From the NCBI GenBank assembly GCA_963789265.1, contig CAWBKB010000001.1, positions 2,016,001 through 2,080,000 of the forward strand: a stretch of DNA of 64,000 nt, given 5' to 3'. This DNA is from an uncultured delta proteobacterium (GTDB lineage: Bacteria; Desulfobacterota; Desulfomonilia; Desulfomonilales; Desulfomonilaceae). Both the position numbers and the translations under genes were made by a program. A model generated the notes under the pieces. It saw nothing but the letters and a program-made list of their open reading frames with translations, had not been told where the DNA came from and ran no database searches. Below, piece after piece: positions 32,992 through 49,082 of this stretch; the first letter of the stretch is position 1, and every line of letters begins with the position of its first letter.

Positions 32992-33068
32992 GGCGGTGTA
33001 GCTCAGCAGGTTAGAGCATGCGGCTCATATCCGCAGTGTCCGGGGTTCAAGTCCCTGCACCGCCACCA
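32992..33068 (+). tRNA. tRNA-Met(CAT), elongator type; integration target
   Basis: GGCGGTG/CACCGCC acceptor stem, GCGG-CTCATAT-CCGC anticodon arm, GTTCAAG T-loop, encoded CCA. Confidence 0.93.
33039..33068 (+). repeat. Left att core (30 bp)
   Basis: TCCGGGGTTCAAGTCCCTGCACCGCCACCA, identical at 48190-48219. Confidence 0.95.
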
Positions 33069-33118
33069 CTTAACCATAGAATATAACGAGACTATCACTC
33101 CTCCCTACCCCCGAATAG

Positions 33119-33138
33119 TTGTGTGCAAATTGTGTGCA
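33119..33138 (+). repeat. Tandem TTGTGTGCA pair, probable integrase arm sites (second pair at 48117-48136)
   Basis: Same 9-mer doublet with 11-bp period, ~50 bp inside both att sites, in the same orientation. Confidence 0.75.
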
Positions 33139-33205
33139 GATCCTCTGTGATGGGAAATCAGACGGGGAACACGTAAATATATGGGACGTGGTTCCCGTAA
33201 AAATC

Positions 33206-33305
33206 GGTCCACTCGGTCCATTCGGGACTTTTGTTGTAATTTCGAGGGATTGCCGAAATTTAAAGCGGTCCACAAGTGGTCCACTTGGGGGGTAAAGTGG
33301 TCCAC
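33206..33305 (+). repeat. Left GGTCCAC iteron-like array (5 copies)
   Basis: Copies start at 33206, 33215 (GGTCCAT), 33267, 33278, 33299. Confidence 0.85.
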
Positions 33306-33317
33306 TGCTTGATTTTA

Positions 33318-34484
33318 TTACTGATTTGACTTTTTCAGGGGGGTGACAGTTGCTTTTCTTTGAATTGATCGAAGTGCGTTAACTTCCAGGTGGGAATATC
33401 GCTTGGTCTGCTCAAGATTGCTGTGCCCCAAAAACTTGGAGACTTTGTAAAGGGATTGGCCGTCGTTCACTGCTTGTGAGGCAATACTGTGGCGCGTGCC
33501 CTGATATAAGGTGATGTGAGCAACCCCAGCTTTTTCACGGGCTGCGTTCCATTGGTTCCTGCACCAATTCCGACCATGAGGCTTACCGGTCGAATCGCAA
33601 AAGACAAATCCCTCGGCATCCACATGGCGCGGTCTCGTCAAATAGAGTTCTTTCCAATTGGGGTCGAGAGGAACAATGCGAATTCGCTTTGACTTGGTAA
33701 ACGGCCGCAGGTCGTTATCAGCGAAGGCCCGCTGTATAGTCACTAGATCATTTTTTAAGTCGATATCGTGATGCTGAAGGGCTCGGGTCTCTCCGGGCCT
33801 CGTTCCGTGCGTAGCTGAGAAGAGGATCATAAGGTGCGCGTCAGCGGTCAGGTTCGCAAAGATAAGGTCCTGTGTCTCGACGTCCGCCCACTTCCACTCC
33901 GGGTCCGGCAGAGTACTTGCCCTGAATTCCATCGGGAACTTGGGGATTGCCTGTATAACCTCTTCCTCGTACGCATCCTTGAAGATCTTGTGAAGGGCGC
34001 TCATGATATTCCAGAGGCTTTTGGGGGAGTAATCAAGCGACAGGTAGAATTGTTTCAGGTCGCGCCCGCGGATCTCTGTAATGGGCTTCTCCTTGAAGTA
34101 GGGAAGGAATATGTTGCGCACGTAGTTCCTGAGCGAGCCCAAGTAGGTAATTGACAACTCATTCCGATCTTTGCGACGCTGGCAATTGCTCAGCCACTCT
34201 TCTGCGTAGACGGAGAAGCTGTGGAGTGATTTTTTCGTCTTGGAATAGAAGTCCGGGTCGAATGTCCCGCTTTGTATCTCGCCTGTTATTTGCGCCAGGG
34301 TATATTCGGCGTGCTCACGACTGTGAAAACTTCTGTGTTGCTTGTCGGCCCAGATCTCAATTCCGCCTGACAGACGGATTTTCCAGCGGTTGCCCCGATT
34401 CTTGTACACCTTCCCCAGAGCAGGCATTGTCCACACCTCCGGCGTTTGGGGGAAAGCATACTTTGTTTTTGACTTTGGGGGCAA
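33318..34484 (-). CDS. int: Tyrosine recombinase / phage integrase
   Basis: GTRPGE, TKSKR, YQGTRHS, LGHSN..TKRY; adjacent to the tRNA att site. Confidence 0.93.
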   Translation of the reverse strand: MPPKSKTKYAFPQTPEVWTMPALGKVYKNRGNRWKIRLSGGIEIWADKQHRSFHSREHAEYTLAQITGEIQSGTFDPDFYSKTKKSLHSFSVYAEEWLSNCQRRKDRNELSITYLGSLRNYVRNIFLPYFKEKPITEIRGRDLKQFYLSLDYSPKSLWNIMSALHKIFKDAYEEEVIQAIPKFPMEFRASTLPDPEWKWADVETQDLIFANLTADAHLMILFSATHGTRPGETRALQHHDIDLKNDLVTIQRAFADNDLRPFTKSKRIRIVPLDPNWKELYLTRPRHVDAEGFVFCDSTGKPHGRNWCRNQWNAAREKAGVAHITLYQGTRHSIASQAVNDGQSLYKVSKFLGHSNLEQTKRYSHLEVNALRSIQRKATVTPLKKSNQ

Positions 34485-34883: not shown

Positions 34884-35164
34884 AGGTTTTCCCTCTCTTC
34901 CGAATAGCAGATGCGGCGCATGATATAATCAGCAGCTTCCCGTTGCGCCGGCGTAATTGGTCGTGGAACCGGATGCGCCCTTAGTATTTTCTCGAGTGCA
35001 CGTAGGGCAACGACGACCGTTTCAGCGGCCCGAACTGCCTTAGCGCCGGCTTCGGGTGCGTACCAATTTTCAACGTCGTGCATTAAAGATTCCGCTTCAC
35101 TTTGCAGTTGCCGAACCTTATCTATGATCTTTCGGAATTCTCCGCACGTATACCCGGGAGTCAT
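34880..35164 (-). CDS. Hypothetical protein (MTPGYTCGEF...)
   Basis: ATGA overlaps with both neighbours. Confidence 0.6.
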   Translation of the reverse strand: MTPGYTCGEFRKIIDKVRQLQSEAESLMHDVENWYAPEAGAKAVRAAETVVVALRALEKILRAHPVPRPITPAQREAADYIMRRICYSEERENL

Positions 35165-35640
35165 GCTGACCTCGCTTCCAATCGGGATTGATGATCTCGC
35201 CAAAACCTCAACAAAATGCTCTCGCAGAGTGTTGCCGCAACTTCCTGGCTCCCAGCGAATAAGAAGGGTATGGCATATCTGTGCTGTAGCGCCACCACGG
35301 ATTCCCAGGCGCTCCTGGGGTTCATTTGGCTGCGGTAATTGCCTTGGAGTAGATCTGAATACCGGGCTTCCACGACCACATAGAAATGCAGGATGGACGC
35401 GGCCCGCTCCAATTCTCTCGTGAACCGTTCGCGGGAGACGGTTAAACAGCCGATCAAATCGTCCAGGGTTTTGCGTTCGATTGAAACCCAGCTTTGGAAG
35501 CCGTCCAGCGAATAATCGCCAGTCGGAAGGCACGTCCGGACGGTTGGCAGAGAAAAGTAATTTTCCCATGGCGCGGGGTCCGGTTCCCGCGTATCAATCA
35601 AGAAAAGCGGCAGAGGTTCGCTCTTGGCCATGCTACTCAC
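35161..35640 (-). CDS. ERCC4/XPF-domain nuclease
   Basis: IDTREP, LPTGDYS, IERKTLDDL, VVVEA. Confidence 0.85.
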   Translation of the reverse strand: MSSMAKSEPLPLFLIDTREPDPAPWENYFSLPTVRTCLPTGDYSLDGFQSWVSIERKTLDDLIGCLTVSRERFTRELERAASILHFYVVVEARYSDLLQGNYRSQMNPRSAWESVVALQHRYAIPFLFAGSQEVAATLCESILLRFWRDHQSRLEARSA

Positions 35641-38085
35641 CCCTGTGCCGACTTAAATTGAGCGCAACTGGTAGCGTCCCGTCTCTCCACTGGCTTGGGG
35701 CAACACCACTCAAGATCACACTGGCTACACGCAAGACTTTGCTTCCCGAAATTACCAGGCACCACGTTGTCCGCTTGGCCTTCGGCCCTCAGTCCTATGC
35801 CGCGCCAAACCTTGACCCGAGCGCTTGCGGGGCCTACTTTGCCCTTTATAATGCCCGCTCTGCCTAGAAGATTTTCGTTGAACGGCGCACGCTTCAAGGG
35901 CTGCTCTCGCACATCCTCACAATGTGACTGATACGCCTTGTAAAGCTCCGAAACGGGTACAGTCGCGGAGATGTGGACCACACAATGCTTGTCCAGGAAA
36001 TCGCCTAGTTTATCGGCGTCTTGCCGGTAATCAGCAACTGCCAACTTGACCTTCTCGGGAGGATTGAGGCCGCTCTGTTGCCACTGCCGAAGCCCAGTCA
36101 GCATCCAGTTTAAAATGCCAGGCGCTTCGGCCTTCAGTTTGTCACCCAGAGTGACATCCTTATCCTCTCCCTCGAATTGCCGGGTAAATGGAATAAGTTG
36201 CGGGCGCCTCCAAAACGCCTCAGACGCGTCCCGCACTTCTGGTCGATTGTTCGCGCAAATGAAGACTTTGGCTTCAGGAGTAAACTCGAAAAATTCCCTG
36301 CGCAAAAAGCGAGCAGTAACCTTACCGTCTCCAGAGACTTTCTTGATAGTTTCGGCGTCGAATCGTTTCCCCTTCGGTTCAGAGGCAGACACGAACCGAG
36401 CGCCCCGGAGTCTGGCCAGGTCATTGCGAGGCGAATCGTCGTTTCTGCGCTCCATGAATGTGGCGGCGGGCGTATCAATAGCGTAGTCCCCCAATACCGC
36501 AGAGATGGTGTTTACAAGCACGGATTTGCCGTTACTGCCTTTTCCCCAGAGAAAAAACCAACATTGTTCGGTGGTCAGCCCGGTAAGGGCGTAGCCCAAC
36601 ACCCGCTGCATATAAGCGGTTAATTCGGCGTCGCCTTCGGTAATCTCTGTGATGAATTGATCCCACCGCGGGCAAACGGCCGCTGCGTCATAGTCAACAG
36701 GCGCTACCCTCGTAATGAGATCATTTGGCGAATGTGGTCGTAACTCGCCGGAGGCAAGGTCAACGGTGCCGTTCCTCACGTTCAAGAGCAAGGGGTTAGT
36801 ATCAAACACGTCTGGGAGTACACTGATTTCCTGCTCAGACGGGAGTAGCTGAATCATGGCGTTGATCTTGGAAACGCTCTCGCACTTCCGGGCGAACTTA
36901 GTCAGAGCTTCTTGCTGGTCCTTGTCCGTCAGATTCGCCGCTTCGCCGTGAAGTCCCCTTACTACGTCCTTGGCAGCGGCCTGAACCCGTGAAAGTTGAT
37001 CCTGCGCCCATCTAGTTCCGTCATAATGGTACCATCCTCCCAACTGTCCGCAGAACTTGATTTTGCCTTGAACAGCAGCGGCCAAGCGCTCAGCGTTTCC
37101 CATGTCGCTGAGGTGGTGGGAATCAGACTTGCCCTTTTCTTGAGCCTGGCGCCGGCGCTCGGCACGAATTGCCGATACGAATTCGTACTCCGGGGTCTCT
37201 TCCGCCAAATAAAGCAACGTGTAATATGTCCCCTCGCGACCCTCCTTCTCGAGGAAATCAGAGAGGTCCCCCCCTTCGGGCAGGTTGGGCAGGTTCAGGA
37301 TTTTGACGCTTTTCGCAAATCCGTGGAGGGTATCAGCTACCGCTCGGGCGTGACTCTGACCCGGTTCGTCATTATCGGGGATGATCCATACTACGCGATC
37401 TTTGAGAGGCTCGTGAATCGCATATTTTTTGACCAGGCCCGGCCATTTACTGCCATGCCGGTCAGCGCCCTGCGGAGGCGTCGTGGCCACAAATCCGAGA
37501 GACCGGGCCGCCAGAAACATCTTTCTCTCCTTCGACTACGAGAACCGGCTTTTCCGGATCCGCGGCCAACAACTCCGGCAGCCCGAATAGGACGCGAGGG
37601 ATGCCGTTTAGATCCCAGGCCCAACCGTCCTTGCCCTTTGGGTCCGGGCGCCGCACGGGGAAATCTCCTTTTGGGTCCGTCCTGCATACCTCATAGAGCA
37701 ATTTTCCTGACTCATCGTGGTACGGGTAGGTCGCGATGATCCTGGCGTACTGCTTCCGTTTTTTCTTGGAAGTTTTTCCTTTATCCGGCTTGGGCTTCCC
37801 GGCCCCTTCAGCGATCCAATTGCAGGCGTCCAGAAATGAGCACTCTTTGGCCGCCATAACGAATCCGATGGGGGGGTAATGCGTATTGCTGGAAAAATCA
37901 TGAGCGTGGTCTTCGTAGATTTTGAGGCTTTCAGTGCTCTCTGATGGATTCTCGATGCTCTTTATAAATCCGCTCGCATTAGGCTCTTTCCCCAGGCGAC
38001 GGCATATCTCGGGCAGGGAAATCAACTTATTGTAATAGTCGGTATTGACTTTGGAGTTCGCGTCAGGTAGGCTCTGATCTGACAT
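35637..38085 (-). CDS. Toprim primase fused to a P4/D5-family SF3 helicase; +1 frameshift near 37515
   Basis: VVEGEKDV, IIPDNDEPG, GGDLSD (Toprim); LSDMGNAER, NGTVDL, GKGSNGKS (Walker A), KKVSGDG, AFWRR. Confidence 0.9.
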
Positions 38086-38331
38086 TTATGGTTCCTCATA
38101 CTGCCCCGGCCGCCAACCGGGGTTTTGTTTATTTGGTTTTCGTTTCTCGGCCTTGAACTGTTTGGCCAGTACTAGCCACTCCGGAATGCTGCCTTCTGGC
38201 CAGTAAAATCGCCCGCGGGGGCTCACAAACGGAGTCGGAAATGCTCCTTGGTCCATGAGGATCAAAAGTTGCTCCACTGTGAGGTGCAACAAATCAGCGA
38301 GACCATGCACATCAATCCCGTTTGTCATCAT
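38086..38331 (-). CDS. AlpA/excisionase-like HTH protein
   Basis: Short winged-HTH with G.FPTP and W..GSI.EW pattern, upstream of the primase. Confidence 0.65.
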   Translation of the reverse strand: MMTNGIDVHGLADLLHLTVEQLLILMDQGAFPTPFVSPRGRFYWPEGSIPEWLVLAKQFKAEKRKPNKQNPGWRPGQYEEP

Positions 38332-38521
38332 TTTTCAGTTTGGCCCCTACAGCCCCGGCTCCGAAATAATGAGCACAGTGGCGGCTGAATTCCCGTAGTT
38401 CGTCACGCACATGTTTGAATTCCCCGCGCCTCATCCGCTCTATCGTTGACCGATGGATGCCCAGCAATATGGCCACACATGGCTGGGAGCATTCAGGCGG
38501 TATGTGTCGATCGGAATCCAT
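38312..38521 (-). CDS. Hypothetical protein
   Basis: GAGG RBS; operon position. Confidence 0.5.
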   Translation of the reverse strand: MDSDRHIPPECSQPCVAILLGIHRSTIERMRRGEFKHVRDELREFSRHCAHYFGAGAVGAKLKNDDKRD

Positions 38522-38533
38522 CTCATTTCCTCG

Positions 38534-38767
38534 TCAGGCCGCGCCCTGGCCTGAGTTTTGGGTGATGTCAGGTACTCGCTCCATTAACCGCTGAAATGTC
38601 CATTCTGGGCCGAAGAATCGTTTCAACTTGCGCTCAAGGTTGCCTGGAGCACGCGTGAGCCAACCGTTTTCCAGTTTGGATAGAACCGATTGCTGCACTC
38701 CCAACTTCATCGCCAAATCCCTCTGACTGATTTGTCGTTGAAGCCGCATGAAAAGCAGGTAATTCAT
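38534..38767 (-). CDS. XRE/Cro-like HTH regulator
   Basis: ISQRDLAMKLGVQQSVLSKLENG; AGGAGG RBS. Confidence 0.85.
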   Translation of the reverse strand: MNYLLFMRLQRQISQRDLAMKLGVQQSVLSKLENGWLTRAPGNLERKLKRFFGPEWTFQRLMERVPDITQNSGQGAA

Positions 38768-38830
38768 AAGGTCCTCCTATCGTTTGGTCACACTTACTGT
38801 GACCTGGTAGACAAAAAAAGGGGCTTACCC

Positions 38831-39439
38831 TCACCGGTTTATTAAAACATCCCCTCGGTAACCGTCAGTGCGTCGCAGGGATTTTGAGACAGTACGATCC
38901 AGGGTTACCCCTAGAGTTTTTTCGATATGTCGAGCAATCGCTTTCACGGAGATGAATGTTGCGCTCATCATAACCATGCCCTGCCAGGGATTCATGCCAA
39001 GCCACGCCTTAAACGTCTCGCGCGCCACATCCAGCGGTTCCACAACCATCATGCACGTGCGCACATTTTTAGCGGTCGTATGATGTTCTTTCGGGTTCTC
39101 GCGCTTTTCGCTTGATATGGATAAAGCGATACTCACGTCATAGCCCCATGCCCGGCAGTACTCCATGACTAGAATAGGCTCCCAGGCCAACGAGAGTTGA
39201 GGTTGTTGCCGGTCCGTCGCGTGGCCGATCAGCATTTGAATATGGTCCGCCCGGTATACTCCATAATGCGAAGCCTGGACTACGATTCCTGTGAGAATGG
39301 CCTTTGGCTCAGGGAATATCATATAGCCGCGAGAATCCCTGTCCACAGGCAGGACGCCTGCATCATCCCAATGTTTGATCGTTGTGCGGCCCACTTCAGG
39401 AAAGCAGTTTTGAATGTTCTTTGGCGAAAATGTCTGCAT
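38831..39439 (-). CDS. Hypothetical protein with MerR-like N-terminal HTH
   Basis: RTTIKHWDDAGVLP..RDSRGY.IF. Confidence 0.6.
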   Translation of the reverse strand: MQTFSPKNIQNCFPEVGRTTIKHWDDAGVLPVDRDSRGYMIFPEPKAILTGIVVQASHYGVYRADHIQMLIGHATDRQQPQLSLAWEPILVMEYCRAWGYDVSIALSISSEKRENPKEHHTTAKNVRTCMMVVEPLDVARETFKAWLGMNPWQGMVMMSATFISVKAIARHIEKTLGVTLDRTVSKSLRRTDGYRGDVLINR

Positions 39440-39583
39440 AGTAACCTCGTTGTGTTCACAGTCAGTGTGACGGGAAGAGACATATAGGAGAATTTTCTGA
39501 GTGTCAACGACTTTCTATGATTTGTTTTGGGTCTATTTTATTTTTTTGCCGTCCAGCTATAGAAGCCCGCACTGACAGTGGTT

Positions 39584-39599
39584 TGGCACACTTGTTGCT
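39584..39599 (+). promoter_or_regulatory. Sigma54 -24/-12 site in the divergent control region
   Basis: TGGCACACTTGTTGCT. Confidence 0.65.
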
Positions 39600-39827
39600 G
39601 AAGGCTGTCAACGCAGATTTTAGGCAGTAATACCTTGAAATGTTTCGAGCGCTAGCAAACAACTACCAAGTCACCTCTCCAAACCCCTGCATGGAAGCCC
39701 ATAAGTGGCACCCTGCATGAAGAAAACAACTACCAGCCATTTCGCAGCGTCCATGATGTCCAATAATCTCGCGCGGTTATAAGGCCGCGGAGTGCATCAT
39801 TTATTTGAAATCATTACCATTTTGGGC

Positions 39828-39856
39828 TTGACTCGTCGCGCGCGGAAAGATATCAT
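39828..39856 (+). promoter_or_regulatory. Sigma70 promoter
   Basis: TTGACT-N17-TATCAT. Confidence 0.6.
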
Positions 39857-40004
39857 GCCCCCCATCTGCATCCAAAATCGCAATCCCCTCCCTTGTATCA
39901 GACTGGTACTCAGGTCCTATACTATAAACCGCAAAAGCCCCCGTTGGAGACAGGAGCTCCGTCGAGGGCTGATGCCACACCTATGCGTCAAAGGAAGGTG
40001 CAGC

Positions 40005-40472
40005 ATGGCAATAATCTATCGTTTCTCGAGCCGCGAAGCAATTTCAAAAGAAGCGCGGCCCACAACGCCATACGTTCCCCCTTGGGAGCAATACTCGCCC
40101 GTACGAAGGGTTATTTTGCCAGACTTTTTCTATCCGGATGTTGAGGTTGTTCGCCGGCAAGATTCTGGGTGCAAACTTGACTACAAAGGTTTCTACTTCC
40201 GATTGATAGTCTGTAAAAAGCCCGGAGAGAGCATCAGAGCGTTTTGCAAGAGAACTGGATATAGCAAGTCAGCGTTCTATCATTTGAGGCAAAATCCAAG
40301 TTCAGTTGCTTCAAACAGGCGTGTAAATCCAAAACTGGCCGACAACCTGGGGGTCGATCCAGGCTGGCTCGAATTGGGGTTGGATTTTGGCCCGCTGCGC
40401 GAGCGAGGTAAATGGCCGCACGTTGAACTGGCGCAAACCGCCGTACCCTCAAAAGTTCGATCCCTGCAATAA
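40005..40472 (+). CDS. HTH-containing putative regulator (paralog 1)
   Basis: AAGGAAGG RBS; SIRAFCKRTGYSKSAFYHL ... LADNLGVDPGWL (XRE-like). Confidence 0.6.
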   Translation: MAIIYRFSSREAISKEARPTTPYVPPWEQYSPVRRVILPDFFYPDVEVVRRQDSGCKLDYKGFYFRLIVCKKPGESIRAFCKRTGYSKSAFYHLRQNPSSVASNRRVNPKLADNLGVDPGWLELGLDFGPLRERGKWPHVELAQTAVPSKVRSLQ

Positions 40473-40537
40473 TTTCTTAACTCCCCGGTCTGCCTGGGCC
40501 GGGGTCCACACTGCCTATGCATAAAGGAAGGTGTAGC

Positions 40538-40869
40538 ATGTCAAAGTCTATCGTTTCCAAGGAAGCAAAACAAACTGTTCTTCGCGAAAGCGCCGATTAC
40601 CGAATAAGCCATTACTCTATAGAGGAACTCCGCGAATGCGGAGAGAAATTGAGGGCACTCCTGAACGAGATACTCCCTGGCAGGACGGTTCCGAACTGGG
40701 CGCAAGCGCTGGGGGTGAGCGAAAATTTGCTTTTAAGGGTTTCTGGGGGGCACAAAAGGCTTCACGATAACCGACATGTTGAGCGTCACCCAAGGCTTAG
40801 TCCGTCTCAGTACTCCGGCGTGGGACGTGGCAAGTTGGTGGTGGGTCGGCCCCGCTGCGGAGGAGGTGA
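40538..40869 (+). CDS. HTH-containing putative regulator (paralog 2); probable +1 frameshift near 40755
   Basis: Same leader as paralog 1; WAQALGVSENLL; corrected C-terminus ...GPLRRR resembles GPLRER of paralog 1. Confidence 0.5.
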
Positions 40870-41092
40870 GATTGTGGAGAGCTCGCGAAACCGATTCTGA
40901 GGAAGTTCCCGTGCCAGTGCAGTAACCTTTACATCCCCGCTCTTCGGGGCGGGGACCCTCCCTCCCCCGTACCCGATCAGCATACGAAATTCCCGATTTT
41001 GACAAATAGTGCTACGATTACCCTCCGGGCGATCCCCGATCCGGCCGGCGCCGGGGAAGTGAGAAGGTGGGGCGTAACACGATCTCCAATGG

Positions 41093-41419
41093 CTACAGAG
41101 AGAGCACACAGAGGTCGTTGTTCTTGGGCCGGGGCTTCACGGTACGCTTAATCTCCGCTTCCATTCGATCCTCTGCCATGTCCAGGTCGTACCGCGCCTG
41201 TGCGTTCAACCAAAACTGCGGAGTGGTCCTGAAATACCGCCCCAGCCGCATGGCCGTGTCTGCCGTGACGCTGCACTTGCCGTTGAGAATACGATTTACG
41301 GTTGAAACACTAATCCTCAGAGCTTCGGCAAGCTTGTGCTGAGTCAAGCCCAAAGGGTCCATGAATAGTTCCTTTAGTGTCTCGCCCGGGTGAATAGGCG
41401 GTAATTTTCTCGTTTTCAT
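41093..41419 (-). CDS. higA: HigA-family antitoxin
   Basis: PPIHPGE.L, TADTAMRL.RYF.TTPQFWLNAQ.RYDL. Confidence 0.92.
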   Translation of the reverse strand: MKTRKLPPIHPGETLKELFMDPLGLTQHKLAEALRISVSTVNRILNGKCSVTADTAMRLGRYFRTTPQFWLNAQARYDLDMAEDRMEAEIKRTVKPRPKNNDLCVLSL

Positions 41420-41461
41420 AATGTTTTTTCCTATAGATTCTATAATATATTTGTTTCATAC

Positions 41462-41740
41462 TCAGTGATAATCGACCAGTTCTAGATCGTGAATGTATCC
41501 ATCCTTCCAAGCGAAGCACAATCGCCAGTTGCCACTGACCCGTAAGCTATGCTGACCCCTCCGCTGCCCCTTCAATGCCTCCAGCCCCCCACCGGGAATA
41601 GCGGCCAAGTCTTCCAGGCGCACAGCATCTTGCATCGCTCCAAGCAACAGCCTAAGTCTCCTGTGAAGGTGCTCAGGACTCCTTGAATGCTTCCGGTTAG
41701 ACAGCTTCTCCAGTTCCTTGTCTGCAACGCTCTTAATCAT
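41462..41740 (-). CDS. higB: HigB (RelE/ParE-family) toxin, probably leaderless
   Basis: MIKS..DK, LEALKG.R.GQHSLRV..NWRLCF.W, VDYH; TTGCAT-N17-TATGAT ends 6 nt before the ATG. Confidence 0.9.
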   Translation of the reverse strand: MIKSVADKELEKLSNRKHSRSPEHLHRRLRLLLGAMQDAVRLEDLAAIPGGGLEALKGQRRGQHSLRVSGNWRLCFAWKDGYIHDLELVDYH

Positions 41741-41806
41741 GTATATATCATATTGCGCAACGCGGGACAATGCAAGTTCAAAAATGAAAGACATCCAATC
41801 GGCAGG

Positions 41807-42043
41807 CTACCACCCCTTATTCCACCACGGCCCGATCTGCCAGAACGATGTAACCCCTTCTCTGCGGTTGAAAACGGGGAATCCGGCCGCCCGGAGTGCT
41901 TCCAGGTCCCGGTAAATCGTTCGGTATTTTGCCTCGAGTACCCGACAGAGTTCTTCCACCTGGCAACCCGATGGATTTGCCGACAGGTAGCGGACCAGCT
42001 TCCACTGACGAATTAGTGATGTGTTTGGGTGGTCTTTTGCCAT
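41807..42043 (-). CDS. Stand-alone winged-HTH of the WYL-regulator N-terminal type
   Basis: ELC..LE...RTIYRDLEAL.AAGFPV; no WYL domain follows. Confidence 0.7.
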   Translation of the reverse strand: MAKDHPNTSLIRQWKLVRYLSANPSGCQVEELCRVLEAKYRTIYRDLEALRAAGFPVFNRREGVTSFWQIGPWWNKGW

Positions 42044-42057
42044 GGTACGATAGGCAG

Positions 42058-42567
42058 TTAATTATCGTGTTGCGTCTCGCTTGCTTGCTTCCCCTGGAAG
42101 TCGAGAATCCAATCCGTGAGTTTTGAGCGGTCTACCAATTCGCAGCCGTTCGATTGCGCCAGGGTTCGGGCTCCCTTTGTGAAAAGGCTGTTCGTCACAA
42201 CCTGCGCCTCGCTGCATTTATAGTAGGTCTTTCCTGCTACCGCGTCCGATATTGCCCTTCGACTCACCGATTTACCGTGACGCTTGCATTGAATCGCAGT
42301 TCTGGTGCCGTTCGATACTGCTATGAGGTCAACGCCAAGGTCACCGCTGTCAGGCGTAAATTGTACCCGCTTCCCCTGATGCTGGAGCAAACGTGCAACG
42401 TAATTCTCAAACTCGCGCCCGCTCATGAGATCGACCCTGGAAATGTCCAGAGCCCTTATCCTTCGCTCTATCCTCCGCCGTTGCTTCACGCCCCTCCAAA
42501 CGCCCCAGGCGACCACGAGTACTATGCCGAGTAAGAAGAGAAGAGTCAATAAGCTGCTGTCGTCCAT
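42058..42567 (-). CDS. Membrane-anchored Mrr-family restriction endonuclease
   Basis: N-terminal TM; MSGREFE, GDLGVDL, IQCKR, VTNS.FT..A..LA. Confidence 0.85.
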   Translation of the reverse strand: MDDSSLLTLLFLLGIVLVVAWGVWRGVKQRRRIERRIRALDISRVDLMSGREFENYVARLLQHQGKRVQFTPDSGDLGVDLIAVSNGTRTAIQCKRHGKSVSRRAISDAVAGKTYYKCSEAQVVTNSLFTKGARTLAQSNGCELVDRSKLTDWILDFQGKQASETQHDN

Positions 42568-42640
42568 CTGAGCCCCCCTGAATAAAGTTACGACTCCGCG
42601 CGAACGCAATCAAGAGAAATCTGTGTCGCCTCAACTGCCT

Positions 42641-42950
42641 TCACAGGACCCGCGTGGTTGCGATTTCAGGCGAGAGATAGGGATTGATGCCCGGAGAGCC
42701 TGAACCTCGCTGAGATTTGACTACACGGAGCCAGTGGCGCACCTTCTTGGCTACCTTCTGTTCACTGAACATGCAGAGAAGAATTAGACCGTCCAGGGTG
42801 AAGTACCGTTCGCGAGTCGGAGGACGATGTACATCATGTGTAGGCGATACGCCTATTCGAGTGGAATTATAGTCGAATCCGGCCCGTATCAGCCAGGATG
42901 TTTATTTGGGTGCAATCATTGTCGAATTCGTCCTTATGGGTTTTGAGCCC
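42641..42950 (-). pseudogene. Degenerate Bro-N/antirepressor-like fragment
   Basis: HKDEFDNDCTQ in one frame, RYFTLDGLILLCMFSEQKVAKKVRHWL in the next; no start found. Confidence 0.5.
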
Positions 42951-43051
42951 AGCCGCAACGAGAAACGACCGGGCTCTTGCCCTGGCTCGGAAGGGTTTGA
43001 CCAGGGCGCCCAGGCCGCCGAAAACTACTTGGAAAACGGCGGCCTATCGAG

Positions 43052-43121
43052 TTATCCACAACCCTCCGGGGGACCGAGAAGTTATCCACAGGTTACTTCC
43101 GGGAGGGAAAAGTTATCAACA
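43052..43121 (+). promoter_or_regulatory. Three phased DnaA boxes
   Basis: TTATCCACA at 43052 and 43082; TTATCAACA at 43113. Confidence 0.75.
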
Positions 43122-43158
43122 GCCCCTGCCTCCGCAGGAGGTGCGAAAAAATTACGCA

Positions 43159-44175
43159 TCATGAGTACGAAACCTCCGTGGGATCATTGGTGGAGACGAT
43201 TTTGGGGGCGTTGTAGGCAGCATAACGAAGAAAATAATTGGCGAGTCGATCCCGAACCGCTTGAAAAAATTCTGAGATGTCGATCTTGGGTTTTTCTTGG
43301 ATTATGTGCCGCGTTCCTTGCAAGAGTCCTGCTGCCCCATTCACCACAAACTGTGTCTCGCCTGCTGTCAAAATGATGCAGTTGTTATCAGCGTCCAGGA
43401 TGATCGAGGGGCCAATATCCTGATTCTCTTTTGCGGACAGGATCATGACCCGTCCCTTGTCATCTTGCGCCCATCTGTAGATTCCTTGCCCGTTGAGATC
43501 AACCTCGCCAGTGATCGCGACTCCGCCGGCGATCAGTTCAGAGGGCTTCCAGGAGGTTCCTGCCATAACGGATTTAACGCCTCGAACCTCGCCTTTGCGG
43601 TACTTGCTCTCGTCGTTCTTTTGCTCCTGCTGGTCTTCCGTTTGGCCGGGCGCCACCGAAAAATGTCCTGCCCCTGTCCAATCCAGCAATGCTAGAGTTT
43701 CTGCTTTGCCGTTGTCATCCATCAGGAGGGTATGGCCGGCCTCGCTCTTCAGGAGTCTTATGCGAGTACCCTGGCGCACATCATTATCGCTGTAGACCTT
43801 AGCTTCCGCGGGAATCATCTCCGATTTGTCATCCTTAGAAGCGTTCCACGCAGAGAACGGGAAGACAATCGGGCTCGCATAATAGTCACCGCCAGGGAAG
43901 GCCACAGTAACGAGTTCCTTCGGGACAGGGCACCACCACATTCCCATGTCGCCATTACCGGCCGAACCGCCCATCGGCAACCAGGACATTTCGCACCAGT
44001 TCGACCAATTCCTGTAGTCTCCGTCTTCGAGCAGGCTTCGGATCTCAACTCGGACGCGACCTTTTCGTAACGGGTCTTTCAGGTCCTTGACGACTCCCAC
44101 GTGGCAACTTGCACCTTGGAGAATGTGGTGCGCCTCGCGCGGAATCGGGATTTTATTTTGTCGGGGGTCCGTCAT
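43159..44175 (-). CDS. Phage baseplate spike protein (gpV/Gp5 OB-fold, VgrG-like)
   Basis: GVV...DP..KGRVRV, WC, GMWW.P...E.V.VAF.GGD...PIV, followed by beta repeats KSEAGHTLLMDD. Confidence 0.8.
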   Translation of the reverse strand: MTDPRQNKIPIPREAHHILQGASCHVGVVKDLKDPLRKGRVRVEIRSLLEDGDYRNWSNWCEMSWLPMGGSAGNGDMGMWWCPVPKELVTVAFPGGDYYASPIVFPFSAWNASKDDKSEMIPAEAKVYSDNDVRQGTRIRLLKSEAGHTLLMDDNGKAETLALLDWTGAGHFSVAPGQTEDQQEQKNDESKYRKGEVRGVKSVMAGTSWKPSELIAGGVAITGEVDLNGQGIYRWAQDDKGRVMILSAKENQDIGPSIILDADNNCIILTAGETQFVVNGAAGLLQGTRHIIQEKPKIDISEFFQAVRDRLANYFLRYAAYNAPKIVSTNDPTEVSYS

Positions 44176-44272
44176 TGGATTGCACTCCTTAGAAGAAAAT
44201 CCCGCCCCACGGCCATAGGAATGGTTGAGACTCCGGGAGGCGGGCCTATCCGCCTGACGAGCGGGTAAAACG

Positions 44273-44650
44273 TTAAAATTCCAAAGTTTCGACTGGTTGT
44301 CCTACGTCGGTTGCGTGTGTAATCGCCATGCCATGTTTGACCTGACCATCGGCAACCGGAAAAACGGCATTCCCAGCGCCAAAACAGAAGGGGCCGACTG
44401 GTACGGCAGCGCCACTAACCCTCGTGCGCCTCAACACGAAGCTTGATACCACCACGCATGTTTCGGGATCTAAGCAGCCGTAATTGCTGGCTGAATGCCG
44501 TGAAATCACTTCACCGACAACATTTGCACTCCCCTGGCTAGAAATCGGTTGCACCGACATGTCGCCGATGATTTCAACGATGTCTCCTGCCTGAGTCTCT
44601 GGCGTGCATGTGAACATGTCAGACAGCGGTTCACCTGCGACTTTATTCAT
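44273..44650 (-). CDS. Putative capsid decoration/cement protein (DUF2190-like)
   Basis: 125 aa, beta-rich: AGDIVEI, VVGEV, GAAVPVG, GMAITHATDVGQPVE. Confidence 0.45.
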   Translation of the reverse strand: MNKVAGEPLSDMFTCTPETQAGDIVEIIGDMSVQPISSQGSANVVGEVISRHSASNYGCLDPETCVVVSSFVLRRTRVSGAAVPVGPFCFGAGNAVFPVADGQVKHGMAITHATDVGQPVETLEF

Positions 44651-44858
44651 TTTGCCCCCCGATCTTGACCCATCCTTTTGTAGCCAACTTTTGCACCGCC
44701 TCTCGAATGTCTTCCTCCATGAGCCTATCAGCAGCATCCTTCTTTCGGTTTGCCATCTCAAGTTCCGTATCCCGCGGGCCCGCTCCGTCTGTGCAGTGCT
44801 CGAAGCTGAACACCGTTTCGCCGTCGATCACTTCAGCATGTGGTATTGTCGCATTCAT
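44643..44858 (-). CDS. Hypothetical protein
   Basis: Translationally coupled within the operon. Confidence 0.5.
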   Translation of the reverse strand: MNATIPHAEVIDGETVFSFEHCTDGAGPRDTELEMANRKKDAADRLMEEDIREAVQKLATKGWVKIGGQNE

Positions 44859-45011
44859 CGGTTGTTTCTCCTCGCCTTGGCCACGTTCCGATAGTAGGTA
44901 CGGCGCTCTTCCAGCAGATCCACGTCCTGACAGGTCTCAATGTGGCGTCTGGTCCTTAATCTCTTCACGGCTGAGCTTCAACTGAACATTAACGCTGTCA
45001 GCTTTGAGCAT
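44855..45011 (-). CDS. Small hypothetical protein (extra base near 44950)
   Basis: Overlaps both neighbours; reads MLKADSVNVQL...ERRTYYRNVAKARRNNR when corrected. Confidence 0.4.
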
Positions 45012-45805
45012 CAGGCAACCTCGGCTTTGGCCAGCGCCGCCTCAGCCCGCGGAAGGTATGCTCTTATGGCGGCCCGGACCATGCACTCATCTTCATCCGC
45101 TCCACTCGGTAGCCGCGTGCTCAGACCCCATGGCATCGACCATGTGTAACGGGTTATCTCCCCCTTGCTCCTGTCAAGCTCACCGCCGAGCGGCCGTAAG
45201 GTGTCACCGGCTTTACGTTTGGATAGAAAACCCATCACGGCCGTCTCTAAATGTTTTTCCAGACAACCGCCCAGGTCGCGGAGTCGTTCCAAATCATTCA
45301 TATACACATTAAGATGGAATCCGACCCGGCGACCGGAAAACATCGGCCGAATGTGGCCGCAATGAGCTTTGGCATACTTTTTGACAGCGGCCCTCATGAA
45401 AAATGCCCTCTCGTCCGGCTGAACCGGCAAAAACTCGTCTGCCAAGTCGCTGGGGACAACCCAGATGTAATTCGTGCACTGCTCAGACGCCCGGAAATTA
45501 GGCACGTTCAGCTTACCCTCAGTGAACACCGACTCGGGGCTCTTCGGCTGGTAATCTCTCACAGCGGCCCAGAAATGGTCCGACAGAGGATCGTCTAGTT
45601 CCCTGAACTTCTCGAAATAGCTGTTTTCGTACGCGACCATAATCCTGGTCAGACCCGGCACCCGAGGCGGCTCTACCGGCTCCGGCAACTGCGCCGCATA
45701 GAATGATACCGCTTTCTCAGCCGCATCCACAATGTGGCCCGTGGCCGCCAACCTCCGGTAATCTTCGTCCGAAACTCGTAATACCAAACCCAAATCGTGC
45801 GCCAT
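45011..45805 (-). CDS. Hypothetical protein with ~5 tandem ribbon-helix-helix-like units
   Basis: AGGAGG RBS; repeated beta-helix-helix units ending AV/AI..Y/F. Confidence 0.6.
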   Translation of the reverse strand: MAHDLGLVLRVSDEDYRRLAATGHIVDAAEKAVSFYAAQLPEPVEPPRVPGLTRIMVAYENSYFEKFRELDDPLSDHFWAAVRDYQPKSPESVFTEGKLNVPNFRASEQCTNYIWVVPSDLADEFLPVQPDERAFFMRAAVKKYAKAHCGHIRPMFSGRRVGFHLNVYMNDLERLRDLGGCLEKHLETAVMGFLSKRKAGDTLRPLGGELDRSKGEITRYTWSMPWGLSTRLPSGADEDECMVRAAIRAYLPRAEAALAKAEVA

Positions 45806-46102
45806 AAAGCCTCCTGAAAAAACCCAATAATGGTTGACTGCTCATTATCAAAGACTCGCTCGATGTCAAGGAAAATTAACCGCGCAAGTTAATCCAGTTT
45901 AATACGTTTAATGAGTTAAGAGAAAAAATATCAAAAACGGCATATACGGGGGAGAGATTGCCCTAAAATCGCCGACCCCGGGGGGGGGCCTTTTCAGACA
46001 TAGGGGGGGGTATACTTGTGGTACCATCGCGCCACGCTTGGTGTTTCAGTGCGGGGTGAGCTTGTGCGGTGAAACTTCTATCGTGCTCTGGTCTGTTGTA
46101 GA

Positions 46103-46420
46103 TCAACTCTCGTCGTCGTCGTCCAGCGCTGCCTTCGCTACGAACGCGTCAATCCTTTTGATCAACGGCTCCCAGCTTTGCGGCATGTATCCGTCCAAAC
46201 ACGCCATGATCATGAGGTTTATTCCCTCGGTTATAGCCTCCCGAGCTTCAACGAGAAGGGAAATTGCATCGTCGGTGCCTTCCCCGAGATATCCATCAAG
46301 GGCCTTTTGGCGGTTGGCGGGTAACTGAGCAACCAGCTTTTTCAATTCGATCATTGCCGGGTGCTTCGAGATGTCTCCGGGCTTTTTGCGAACGTTGGTT
46401 CCATCGTTTGCATTTTTCAT
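46103..46420 (-). CDS. Hypothetical protein
   Basis: ATGA overlap with the serine recombinase; GGAGG RBS. Confidence 0.6.
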   Translation of the reverse strand: MKNANDGTNVRKKPGDISKHPAMIELKKLVAQLPANRQKALDGYLGEGTDDAISLLVEAREAITEGINLMIMACLDGYMPQSWEPLIKRIDAFVAKAALDDDDES

Positions 46421-47121
46421 GCGGCCCTCCTGTAAATCTTGGCAACCAGGACATCCGACCATACAGCGCCAGTCCGGGTCTGATAACCTTCCTGGTTCAA
46501 TTCCCGCGCTATCGCCCTGAATCCATGTCCATCTGCTTTGAGCTCGTGAATACGTGCAATGATCTTCTGCTCGGTAGGCTCCGGGACCAATACTTTGAGC
46601 GGTCGATCTTTGCCGGCCTGAACCTTTTCTTCAACCCCGAATCCAAAAGGAACATGACCGCCTGTCTTCTCGTTCCGCTCTTGCTTGTCTTTCATGATGG
46701 CCAGGGTGCGCTCACTCGTCACGTCACGTTCGAACTGAGCAAAGGCGCTCATCATACTGAAAAACAACTTACCTGCGGCACTGGTAGTGTCGATGGACTC
46801 GCTGACACTGATGAAGTCCCGGCCCAGCTTGTTCAACTTCTCAGCCGTTGCAATAGAATCCTGAGTCGAACGGAAAGCTCGGTCTAGTTTGAACACGATC
46901 AGACCGGCAACTTTGCCACTGTAAACCTCATCTAGGCAGGCTTTGAATCCGTGGCGTAGGTGGATACTCTTAGCGGATACACCGTCGTCGTAATAGATGC
47001 AGTTCAGTTCGAGGCCCTTGGCCTGAGCATAGGCTGAGATTCGCTCGCCCTGCATTTTCAAGGACAAGCCGTCTTTGGCCTGCTTCGCGCTGCTCACCCG
47101 AACATAACCGTTGACTTTCAT
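46417..47121 (-). CDS. Serine recombinase (resolvase family with recombinase-domain C-terminus)
   Basis: YVRVSS, DDGVSA, FKLDRAFR, DTTSAAG, AQFER...ERT, GGHVPFGF. Confidence 0.92.
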   Translation of the reverse strand: MKVNGYVRVSSAKQAKDGLSLKMQGERISAYAQAKGLELNCIYYDDGVSAKSIHLRHGFKACLDEVYSGKVAGLIVFKLDRAFRSTQDSIATAEKLNKLGRDFISVSESIDTTSAAGKLFFSMMSAFAQFERDVTSERTLAIMKDKQERNEKTGGHVPFGFGVEEKVQAGKDRPLKVLVPEPTEQKIIARIHELKADGHGFRAIARELNQEGYQTRTGAVWSDVLVAKIYRRAA

Positions 47122-47159
47122 AATCCATCCTCCCTTTTCTTTCGTCTACCCCTCTATAC

Positions 47160-47175
47160 TGCACATTCCATGCCA
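47160..47175 (-). promoter_or_regulatory. Sigma54 promoter upstream of the serine recombinase
   Basis: TGGCATGGAATGTGCA, ~40 bp before the ATG. Confidence 0.65.
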
Positions 47176-47454
47176 CTCTTCGCCCCGCGAGGCCACAATA
47201 TACAGCCTCCAAAGCGGCCCGTCGCGCAGATATGGTATGGTAAATCTCCTCGGGCCTGCTACAATGCGGAAATAATGCCGTGAGTGTCCGAAAAGTAAGG
47301 CAGAGTGTAGCTTATTGGGATCGCCCGACTTTTGGGGCAGTGTTTGAGCATAAAAAGCCCATTAACAGCCACTTTGGGTATTTAAAACCGCTCCATGAGA
47401 GGCCCAGGAAGGCGAGACCGCGTACTTTGCCAGGATCGGAGCAACCCTAGATGT

Positions 47455-47619
47455 TGGCACGAAGATTGCTTCTTATTATATGGCACGGTAATTGCTAAGA
47501 CATGGACCCGCAAGAGTGGCCCGGGCCTTGCATTATTAGCAGGTAGTATGCCATGAGACTATTTTGGCACGTGGCTAGAATTCTGTGACTAATTCCCTCT
47601 AAATGGCCCGCTTCCTGCA
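47455..47619. promoter_or_regulatory. Array of sigma54 -24/-12 motifs (5 matching, 1 partial)
   Basis: 47455 TGGCACGAAGATTGCT; 47481 TGGCACGGTAATTGCT; 47517 TGGCCCGGGCCTTGCA; 47538-47553 (minus) TGGCATACTACCTGCT; 47565 TGGCACGTGGCTAGAA (partial); 47604 TGGCCCGCTTCCTGCA. Confidence 0.8.
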
Positions 47620-47972
47620 TGTATTCCACGATAACACACCGCTTCTCACAATCGCTGATCTGAAACTCCGAGTAAACTAGGTGCATATACACCATATTTG
47701 CATCGAAATTAGAGCGCTGACATGGCAATGCTGGAGAGGCTTTGACCAGGTGGTCATCGGTAACAGCAGGCTCAGTGAGGAGTTAGAGAGGTTCCCAAAC
47801 TGGCCCGAGCGGTCAGTTTTCCGTGTTTCGCAAGAATCGCAATGGAAGTATGCATTGACGCATGGACCGGACAAGAAAACCGCGGGATTCCGCGGAGGCG
47901 TGGACGTGAGGAACCGGCAATCGCCACACTCTGAAAGTTTCTATAAACCTACTTCTTCAATGAAATCAATTA

Positions 47973-48071
47973 GTGGACCGTTTTTTATAAAAGTGGACCG
48001 TTTGTGGACCACTTTGCATTTTTATAAGTCTCTGGAATCAGGATATATGGACCGAGTGCACCGAGTGGACC
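47973..48071 (-). repeat. Right GGTCCAC iteron-like array (6 copies, inverted relative to the left array)
   Basis: GTGGACC at 47973, 47993, 48004, 48065; ATGGACC at 48047; GTGCACC at 48056. Confidence 0.85.
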
Positions 48072-48189
48072 GTTTTTTTATTCCTAACATAAAGTAAAAA
48101 AGCATAAGAAAAGGGGTTGTGTGCAGGTTGTGTGCAGGCGGGTATGGTGGTCAGTAAGTTGTAGTAATAACAGGGTTATTTGGTAGGCT

Positions 48190-48219
48190 TCCGGGGTTCA
48201 AGTCCCTGCACCGCCACCA
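48190..48219 (+). repeat. Right att core (duplicated tRNA-Met 3' end)
   Basis: Identical to 33039-33068. Confidence 0.95.
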
Positions 48220-48500
48220 GCTAACCTGGCACTACCATTGCGGATTCCTTGTGCACTAAGAATCTTCGGTGTACCGCCGATCACTCCCAAAGCATCGTTC
48301 AAAGGCTGTACAAGGCAATTTCGCTAATATTCCATTCCTGAGTGCAGTGTCTTATATCGGGTGATGTTGCGTGCGCTTGCAGTCCTGCCCGCATTACACC
48401 TCATCGGGTATTTTCAAGTAGAAGCGCGGGATGGCTAAAGCGCCAGGCAACCGGCCCTTGAACAATCATCCAAAACAGCGTATAAAAATATGTTCGGGAC

Positions 48501-49082
48501 ATGAGAATAATTGCGGGCCGTTTCAAAGGATTGCGACTGCCTTCGCCCAAGAAAAAGGGGGTGCGCCCGACTACCGACCGAGTGCGGGAGGCATTGTTCA
48601 GCACCCTGGGCCCCGATGTCACAGATTCCCGCGTGCTCGACCTTTTCGCCGGGACAGGCGCTTTTGGCTTTGAAGCCCTCAGCCGCGGCGCAGCTTCAGT
48701 GGTGTTCGTGGACAGCGATCGCCAGGTAGCCCGCACCTTATCAAGGACGTGCCACGGTCTGGGAGTGGTAGACCAAGTCCGGATTCTGACCATGTCCGCC
48801 GAACAGGCCGTCAAAAGGCTCTCAGGGTCCGAAGAAAGATTCGAAATCATTTTTCTCGATCCCCCGTACGGGGAGCAATTGATTCCAGAGATGGTTTATA
48901 ATCCGATCTTTGCGAGCCTGTTCGAACGCAACGGCCTCCTGATCGTTGAAAGAGAAGAGAGGGCTTCGGAACTTGCTGTGCCCACAAGGTTCGAGAAGGA
49001 GTTCAATCGAAAATACGGTAGCACGATTATCGAAATATTTCGGTATAACATGAGCGATGTTTCAACCTTTCCATTGAGGTAG
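48501..49082 (+). CDS. rsmD: 16S rRNA m2G966 methyltransferase
   Basis: MRIIAG, RPTTDRVREALF, LDLFAGTG..G.EALSRGA, FLDPPY. Confidence 0.93.
   Translation: MRIIAGRFKGLRLPSPKKKGVRPTTDRVREALFSTLGPDVTDSRVLDLFAGTGAFGFEALSRGAASVVFVDSDRQVARTLSRTCHGLGVVDQVRILTMSAEQAVKRLSGSEERFEIIFLDPPYGEQLIPEMVYNPIFASLFERNGLLIVEREERASELAVPTRFEKEFNRKYGSTIIEIFRYNMSDVSTFPLR

Follow-up and report, generated by a model that had tools for sequence, protein, structure and literature searches.

A tRNA-Met-integrated island of an uncultured Desulfomonilaceae bacterium carries an isolated contractile-tail spike gene beside a putative head-decoration gene

Satellites remodel the heads of their helper phages, and a few build capsids of their own. 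In the chromosome of an uncultured delta proteobacterium of the family Desulfomonilaceae, a 15.2-kb island integrated at a tRNA-Met gene carries a gene for a central tail spike and a gene for a predicted head-decoration protein. The question raised by this locus is what these two virion genes do in an element in which no other virion gene is recognizable. The island occupies positions 33039-48226 of the stretch of 64,000 nucleotides that was analyzed (the window; positions 2,016,001 to 2,080,000 of contig CAWBKB010000001.1, assembly GCA_963789265.1, forward strand) and is bounded by an attachment (att) direct repeat. Positions given below are those of the window. A first-pass annotation, made from the sequence without database searches, had proposed that the element, as a satellite, may exchange the spike of a helper with a contractile tail and decorate its head, or may plug into a contractile injection system of the host. 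The anatomy of the island proved to be solid and unusual, and the identity of the two proteins, the location of their relatives and the site that the island shares with a phage lineage are described first.

The spike gene encodes a protein of 338 amino acids. Residues 26-104 matched PF04717 with an E-value of 5.7e-11 (43 bits against a cut-off of 23.8). An AlphaFold2 model calculated from a 40-homologue alignment reached a predicted local distance difference test (pLDDT) value of 85 and displayed an OB domain, beta strands between residues 139 and 287, and a C-terminal helix. In Foldseek, 24 PDB matches were obtained at E<=1e-3, all of them central spikes, including those of extracellular contractile injection systems (eCIS), VgrG, P1, Mu, P2 gpV and R2 pyocin. 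The probability was 1.00 against P2 gpV (3qr8), the R2 pyocin (4s37), the P1 and Mu baseplates, VgrG and eCIS; the template modeling (TM) scores are low (0.24-0.34) because the model is a monomer. Known spikes of contractile tails (P2 gpV, Mu gp45, the R2 pyocin, the OB part of T4 gp5 and the C-terminal half of VgrG) likewise combine a PF04717 OB domain with a beta-helical prism. The island protein differs from them in its length of 338 residues, its extra C-terminal helix and the lack of a hub, gp25 or other baseplate gene alongside. PF04717, the model and Foldseek agree on the gpV/gp5-OB spike that had been proposed. The protein is full length and has kept 17 of the 17 invariant columns of the 40-spike family. 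In total, 51 other homologues of 201-345 residues were collected. The family was present in one of 60 relatives and in none of 400 other genomes sampled from the phylum (E<=1e-20), and no phage in GenBank contained a match to the spike at E<=1e-5.

The neighboring gene, 97 nt away on the same strand, encodes a protein of 125 amino acids. No match of its own was found for this protein in Pfam (even at E<=10), PHROGs or NCBIfam. A word-based homologue search retrieved only its own cluster, a scan of viral contigs with the single protein retrieved nothing, and comparison of the family profile with PDB sequences gave nothing meaningful. An exhaustive HMMER search yielded eight distant homologues, two of which reached PF09956 (Phage_cement_2, the former DUF2190) at E-values of 0.003-0.006, below threshold. 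Four of the nine family members matched a PHROG labeled head scaffolding (best E 2.5e-6). The AlphaFold2 model, based on the nine-sequence alignment, had a pLDDT of 87.5 and was all beta. Its top match in BFVD was the DUF2190 protein of Bacillus phage Taylor (E 2.3e-8; TM scores 0.76/0.68), followed by more DUF2190 proteins. The best matches in the PDB were almost all capsid decoration or cement proteins (HFTV1, TW1, Pam3, BB1, phi29, T1, YSD1 and lambda gpD). VIA Z-scores were 8.5 for the base of phi29 gp8.5, 8.0 for the HFTV1 protein and 4.9 for lambda gpD, with alignments covering partial domains of approximately 53-55 residues and Z-scores mostly in the range that the tool grades as middling. 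Judged from the model, the protein is predicted to have the DUF2190 head-decoration fold, and it is by structure (model, BFVD and PDB matches, with Pfam blank) that the earlier DUF2190-like assignment turned out to be correct. The all-beta fold is shared with the DUF2190/PF09956 cement proteins and their structural relatives in TW1, HFTV1, T1, YSD1, phi29 (gp8.5) and lambda (gpD). The island gene differs from those of the DUF2190 relatives in that it adjoins a tail gene instead of a capsid gene and has no Pfam match. A literature search on DUF2190 and decoration yielded no paper. The protein is full length, and nine of nine invariant columns of its family are kept.

Both genes lie well within the island. 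The att direct repeat comprises 37 nt (33039-33075 versus 48190-48226), of which 35 are identical, and consists of the last 30 nt of the tRNA gene and 7 nt beyond it. An Rfam scan detected the tRNA and the att fragment only. Three DNA runs from one study cover parts of the window; they were compared as contigs and cannot show expression. One of the contigs covers the right edge of the island (48137-48700), and no excision or circle joint was found in them. Within the att boundaries, no capsid, portal, terminase, sheath or tube family and no other baseplate family was recognized among the open reading frames (ORFs), 21 of which were searched with Pfam and 16 with PHROGs and NCBIfam. The absence of core virion genes reported by the first-pass annotation is borne out by these searches.

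The search was extended to the whole genome assembly (6.06 Mb in nine contigs, 95.6% complete, 6% contamination). The island spike was the single PF04717 match in the genome. No match was obtained for Baseplate_J, GPW_gp25 (gp25/TssE), Phage_sheath_1, Phage_capsid, GpA_ATPase or TerL_ATPase. When the genome was searched by tblastn with the tail proteins of five related phages, only the spike was found, and the same search with all ORFs of two related phage records, G061 and G063, revealed no other structural gene. No resident helper was detected, and any helper would have to be an external one.

Relatives of the spike occur in a different setting. Full-length members of the spike family were found at 31 loci from genome, metagenome and viral contigs, several of which are the same contig in two collections. 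In all 31, the spike gene is directly preceded by a homologue of a gene for a 394-residue protein, which has no Pfam match and, judged from its position, is taken to be a gp27-like hub. A tube-initiator-like gene precedes the latter in 29 of the 31 loci. A gp25-like gene follows the spike in 25 loci; the contigs of the other six end just past the spike. At one related locus, Pfam identified a tube protein, a contractile injection system (CIS) tube protein, the spike, gp25, baseplate J, a wedge component and a DUF4815 protein. The spike is therefore embedded in a baseplate module at every related locus, and only in the window does it stand without one. The profile of the decoration family matched all five viral (myovirus) records that carry the spike, with E-values of 3e-31 to 6e-44. 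Where its position in the phage records was checked, the decoration gene belonged to the head region, at a distance of 13-20 kb from the spike.

The closest phage record, G061, is a viral contig of 63 kb that is 68% complete according to CheckV. Its spike is 62% identical to the island spike, with 67% identity in the first 254 residues, which include the OB domain, and 46% in the last 85. The next-closest homologues (P0003-P0010, on contigs of 3.6-20.7 kb) are 46-55% identical. In G061, the decoration gene shares the strand of the spike gene and is located approximately 14 kb upstream of it, 2.8 kb from the gene for the large terminase; the major capsid gene was not identified. G061 has no tRNA gene and contains a 50-nt stretch with 100% identity to positions 33019-33068 of the window, the 3' half of the tRNA-Met gene. 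A gene for a 411-residue tyrosine integrase is located 23 nt from this tRNA-like stretch (region 46540-47892 of G061), and the terminase and head genes lie on the other side. This is the arrangement of a phage attachment site (attP) for the tRNA-Met gene of the window. Since the attP is identical to the tRNA segment, G061 targets the very site that is occupied by the island. Sixteen other genomes, which represent several genera of this bacterial family, have an identical copy of the tRNA segment; identity is 94-98% in the remaining genomes with a full-length match. Given this conservation, the host of G061 belongs to the family, and not necessarily to this genus.

In three phage records (G061, G062 and G064), the gene for a decoration protein of 123-124 residues is followed at once by a gene for approximately 326-648 residues, the N terminus of which matches the same profile. 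The product of this second gene may be a head fiber anchored by a decoration domain.

A tblastx comparison of the island with two phage records revealed similarity in the spike, the decoration gene, the serine recombinase, a BRO fragment and the tRNA piece only. Apart from the serine recombinase, which is 38% identical to a G061 gene, the backbone genes of the island have no homologues in G061 or G063. Fragments of the phage genes that flank the spike or the decoration gene were not found in the island by tblastx. The BRO fragment, a pseudogene located 200 nt from the spike, matched the BRO protein of G061 in two different frames by tblastn (57% identity over 58 residues and 42% over 26 residues) and by blastn (93% over 29 nt and 70% over 98 nt). 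With each of the five phage homologues, the island decoration protein shares 29-34% identity. Among four of these phages, identity is 49-78% in the decoration protein and only 39-44% in the spike. Because the affinities of the two island proteins are so unequal (62% for the spike and 29-34% for the decoration protein), their origin through one simple deletion in a G061-like prophage is unlikely. The island and G061 also differ in how the serine recombinase, decoration, spike and BRO genes are ordered and oriented.

The island itself belongs to a family. Homologues of its primase-helicase were found in 23 of 69 other genomes of the bacterial family (E<=1e-20), and three related islands were compared. 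The island on G005 C693 has an integrase of 55%, an ERCC4-type nuclease of 37%, an intact primase-helicase of 64% (801 residues) and a homologue of the small regulator o81 with 54-58% identity, together with other cargo. The island on G025 C116, at the same tRNA-Met gene, shares the integrase (69%), the ERCC4-type nuclease (43%), the primase and the serine recombinase (42%), and the integrase of the island on G006 C22 is 65% identical. The layout of serine recombinase, cargo, primase-helicase, ERCC4-type nuclease and integrase is common to the window island and the G025 island, and it is partially present, with different cargo, in G005 and other relatives. Neither the spike nor the decoration gene occurs in the three islands that share this backbone, which makes the pair accessory and dispensable to the island family. 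A cargo slot, located downstream of the serine recombinase, therefore holds the spike operon together with HigBA and the Mrr-family nuclease. A full prophage at the site in a relative would have pointed to a deletion remnant. None was found: the sole genome of the same genus with both flanks on one contig, G001, holds an unrelated insert of 12.8 kb with ORFs of 1074, 1068, 511 and 402 residues.

More generally, the tRNA-Met gene is an integration hotspot across the bacterial family, with partial copies of its 3' end 2-15 kb away in G001 C33, G006 C22, G015 C22, G025 C116 and G033 C1.

The spike and decoration genes are the last two of a minus-strand operon that consists of o264, a mini-ORF of 24 codons, o71, the decoration gene and the spike gene, in this order. 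The ORFs were placed as the first-pass annotation had described, and its two small ORFs are probably o71 and the mini-ORF. The spike and decoration genes are each preceded by a Shine-Dalgarno-like sequence. Neither o264 nor o71 had a match in Pfam (E<=10), PHROGs or NCBIfam or a usable match in the protein Atlas, and a search of 5.8 billion proteins with o264 returned only its own cluster. The same annotation had labeled the o264 product a poly-ribbon-helix-helix (poly-RHH) protein. This label received no support from any family. An internal repeat was significant: residues 104-144 align with residues 211-250 with a score of 60, which was reached in none of 100 shuffles (maximum 41). The repeated units have strand-helix-helix character, and o264 may encode a DNA binder with multiple RHH units. 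The mini-ORF and o71 could be either two coupled small genes or one gene of 122 codons with a stop or read-through. Upstream of o264, the hexamer TTGACA was considered as a promoter and was not accepted by the promoter scan.

Table 1. Features of the island and its tRNA-Met site, in window coordinates
Feature	Position	Strand	Remarks
tRNA-Met (CAT)	32992..33068	+	ARAGORN; Rfam tRNA, 66 bits; 3' end = attL, core repeat 33039-33075
Terminal inverted repeat, left arm	33199..33286		Imperfect, GGTCCAC-rich; pairs with 47991-48078; 88 nt, 70% complementary
Tyrosine integrase	33318..34484	-	PF00589, E 2.3e-18
ERCC4-type nuclease (backbone)	35161..35640	-	PF02732, E 4e-10; phrog_3490, E 1.6e-18
D5-type primase-helicase	35637..38085	-	D5_N, E 1.5e-34; reads as two ORFs of 207 and 627 residues
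Three small regulators (excisionase-like, two helix-turn-helix proteins)	38086..38767	-	phrog_2790, E 0.0025; HTH_3, E 7.4e-8
Two paralogues, helix-turn-helix-like, possibly repressors	39792..40900	+	Shared repeat at starts; second hit by indel at 40740
HigB/HigA toxin-antitoxin pair	41093..41794	-	PF05015, E 1.8e-14; HTH_3, E 4.7e-10
Small WYL-type helix-turn-helix protein, then Mrr-family nuclease	41807..42609	-	Mrr_cat, E 3.2e-26; PADLOC WYL, E 4.8e-7
BRO-N pseudogene fragment	42650..42960	-	Residues 44-128 of a 273-residue phage protein, two frames
Two perfect DnaA-box 9-mers, TTATCCACA	43052..43090	+	30 nt apart; just downstream of spike gene
gpV/gp5-type central tail spike	43159..44175	-	PF04717; OB domain, beta-helix, C-terminal helix
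Head decoration (cement) protein, predicted DUF2190 fold	44273..44650	-	125 residues; 162 from upstream TTG
o71, ORFan	44643..44858	-	End overlaps start of decoration gene by 8 nt
24-codon mini-ORF	44937..45011	-	Overlaps o264 stop; same frame as o71 across one TGA
o264, first gene of operon	45011..45805	-	ORFan with internal beta-alpha-alpha-like repeat
o119, ORFan	46103..46462	-	No family match, Pfam at E<=10 included
Small serine recombinase (backbone)	46417..47121	-	234 residues; Resolvase, E 1.8e-34
Terminal inverted repeat, right arm	47991..48078		Pairs with 33199-33286
attR, displaced tRNA-Met 3' end	48190-48226	+	Direct repeat

The remaining genes of the island comprise a backbone and further cargo (Table 1). 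Starting from the tRNA gene, the tyrosine integrase is followed by two unassigned ORFs, the ERCC4-type nuclease, the D5-type primase-helicase, and the excisionase-like and helix-turn-helix (HTH) proteins. Then come the two plus-strand paralogues, HigB/HigA, the WYL-type HTH protein with the Mrr-family nuclease, the spike operon, o119 and the serine recombinase. The frame break in the primase-helicase gene is a one-letter indel near 37515, and the intact 801-residue homologue of G005 can be aligned through the two frames. In contigs from a metagenome run, one letter is missing from a short homopolymer at 37515, exactly at the break; for this reason the split is probably an assembly error, and an interpretation as gene decay was dropped. 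A further letter is missing from these contigs at 40740, where the window has a G run. Assembly indel errors have thus probably split the primase-helicase gene and cut short the plus-strand regulator gene. With the rest of the island apparently intact, its backbone looks functional as judged from the sequence. In GenBank phages, the primase-helicase matched ordinary phage primases at <=36% identity. Homologues of the serine recombinase with 221-228 residues lie beside primase-helicase genes in three related loci; since this length is normal in related islands, the 234-residue protein was rejected as a truncated large recombinase. The plus-strand paralogues had no family match, and their HTH assignment comes from reading the sequence. 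The Mrr-family nuclease also matched the nuclease domain of ZorD in PADLOC (E 9.4e-20), and its N terminus resembled a membrane-protein domain weakly (LapA_dom, E 1.5e-4, below cut-off). Together with the WYL-type HTH protein it is likely to be defense cargo. The two DnaA boxes are the sole matches in the 64-kb window, in which 0.41 were expected; at least two occurred in five of 100 shuffled sequences. The pair could be an origin of the island or a regulatory site.

The terminal inverted repeat, which grows to 122 nt at 70% identity in blastn, lies inside both ends of the island. With its length of 88-122 nt and its GTGGACC motifs, it is unique to the window island among the relatives compared. 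The island interior is also flipped relative to the att core: the integrase adjoins the tRNA gene (attL) in the window, and it is found at the far end, adjoining attR, in the islands of G006 and G025; an integrated G061 would have it there as well. The window island also encodes a small serine recombinase, and an inversion of the whole element is conceivable.

How can the two virion genes be explained? We tentatively favor a working role for the pair in particles of a G061-type myovirus, by piracy, interference or both, with a confidence that stays slightly short of even. The island would be a self-replicating hitcher element of the satellite kind, a status that we infer, which integrates at tRNA-Met and whose cargo slot captured two virion genes from temperate myoviruses targeting the same tRNA-Met gene. 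Upon multiplication of such a myovirus in the cell, the operon would be expressed. The island spike would seat on the gp27-like hub of the phage, either replacing the phage spike or mixed with it, and the DUF2190 protein would bind to the outer face of the capsid built by the phage. The resulting particles would carry a tip and head-surface parts specified by the island, and this could promote the spread of the island, weaken the phage, or both. We infer that the operon is expressed, that its products enter particles and that the island is packaged, and likewise which side benefits. A narrower version, in which a satellite supplies a baseplate part and the island spike and cement protein are built into helper myovirus particles to give a different membrane-piercing tip and a reinforced head, appears unlikely. 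In support of a working role, both virion genes are complete with all invariant residues of their families, the arrangement is operon-like, no fragments of their phage neighbors accompany them, and their affinities to the phage homologues are unequal. The swap of spike and head decoration suggested in the first-pass annotation stays plausible, with a candidate helper lineage that has homologous genes and an attP for the same tRNA-Met gene; it is held back by the lack of a recognized packaging or capsid-size gene, by the three sister islands and by the BRO-N scar.

Several observations weigh against a working role. No resident helper was detected, since sheath, gp25, baseplate J, HK97-type capsid and terminase families were all missing elsewhere in the genome. 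The searches with Pfam, PHROGs and NCBIfam recognized neither a small terminase nor a cos or pac site nor a capsid-size gene, several ORFs of the island being ORFans. The sister islands G005 C693, G006 C22 and G025 C116 contain neither the spike, nor the decoration gene, nor any virion gene recognizable by Pfam. By blastn, nucleotide similarity to G061 was confined to the spike, att and BRO regions. The genes that accompany the pair in the operon, o264 and o71, are ORFans, and a scan for consensus promoters flagged nothing upstream of the operon. Finally, the frameshifted and truncated BRO-N fragment homologous to G061 is a recombination scar as would be expected from passive capture.

Cryptic prophage remnants retain isolated tail genes, and a quite conceivable, though on balance doubtful, alternative is that the pair is an inert leftover of a myovirus prophage that used the same tRNA-Met gene, lay next to the island or recombined with it, and was reduced by deletions and illegitimate recombination, the two genes being intact by chance or because the event was recent. 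The island resembles such remnants in having isolated intact structural genes beside pseudogene fragments at a phage att site, and the BRO-N pseudogene, in two frames next to the spike, matches G061. Phages of the G061 type share the att site, which would favor co-residence and recombination. That three islands with this backbone lack the pair, and that no packaging or size-redirection function was recognized, points in the same direction. The stop codon of the spike gene also keeps an ATGA overlap comparable to the spike/gp25 junction of G061, with a downstream frame of 26 codons that is unlike gp25. However, the completeness of both ORFs and of their invariant residues is at odds with inert genes, and no fragments of the genes that flank the pair in phages were left behind. 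Collinearity with an intact relative, as expected of a defective prophage, was not observed: no single deletion in the layout of G061 would yield the gene order and strands of the island. The divergence from G061 (62% identity versus 29%) speaks against a common single donor. Unlike a cryptic remnant, the island has a separate, apparently intact backbone of its own family and combines a pair from different phage modules.

Alternatively, the pair could be a defense decoy that poisons the assembly of G061-type phages through a mismatched spike and cement protein, protecting the host or the att site without transfer of the island. The neighboring cargo is of the defense type (HigBA and the Mrr-family nuclease with its ZorD nuclease domain), the pair is accessory within the island family, and the phage lineage competes for the same att site. 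But no PADLOC model matched the spike, the decoration protein, o71 or o264, the conserved hub-side part of the spike fits productive incorporation equally well, and we know of no defense system that acts through a spike homologue, a point on which no literature search was made; we consider a decoy distinctly improbable. Use of the spike by a contractile injection system, tailocin or type VI secretion system of the host, the second proposal of the first-pass annotation, deserves hardly any weight. The best Foldseek matches do include eCIS and VgrG spikes, but the genome holds no second PF04717 protein, no Baseplate_J, gp25/TssE or sheath match and, by tblastn with the tail proteins of the five phages, nothing beyond the spike. 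At 95.6% completeness, a missed system is possible but unlikely.

A working role in phage particles can be compared with what is known of satellites. The satellite P4 of the myovirus P2 is a small integrated element with a tyrosine integrase, a D5-type primase-helicase and a head-surface protein. Like P4, the island has an integrase with att sites, its own D5-type replication protein (D5_N), a gene for a head-surface protein and a likely contractile-tailed temperate partner. It differs in that no homologue of Psu, Sid, Delta or Epsilon and no cos site was recognizable; in general, no gene for redirection of capsid size or packaging (Sid/Psu, Cpm, TerS, Ppi) was recognized. Unlike P4, it carries a tail spike, and its decoration gene, unlike Psu, is homologous to that of the phage itself. 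In P4, Psu, Delta and Sid form an operon, as described in excerpts of a satellite survey (PMC10085698). According to the same excerpts, phage-inducible chromosomal islands that form capsids (cfPICIs) bring their own capsid, portal and packaging genes (PMC10085698), and an excerpt of another study describes a tail-fiber gene together with own capsid genes in the Streptomyces satellite MiniFlayer (PMC10690885). The island resembles cfPICIs and MiniFlayer as a mobile element that supplies some structural proteins and would take the rest from a helper; in contrast to them, it has no capsid, portal or packaging genes and carries a baseplate spike instead. The excerpts of the survey state that tail genes were never or very rarely present in thousands of satellites and were used to exclude candidates, and that SatelliteFinder treats tail and lysis genes as "forbidden" for phage-inducible chromosomal islands (PICIs) and cfPICIs (PMC10085698). 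By this rule, the tail spike sets the island apart from satellites. No satellite with a central spike turned up in our satellite-related literature search, which is no proof that none has been described.

The island offers a tangible example with which to ask whether the tail tip of helpers, too, is edited by hitcher elements, and it comes with a named candidate partner in metagenomic temperate myoviruses of a poorly studied bacterial family. The attP links this uncultured myovirus lineage to a host family. If the pair is inert, the locus still documents a trade of genes between phages and islands that share a tRNA site. If the island does supply a baseplate part, it would be the first satellite shown to re-arm the tail tip of its helper, and current satellite finders for which a tail gene disqualifies a candidate would overlook such a class.

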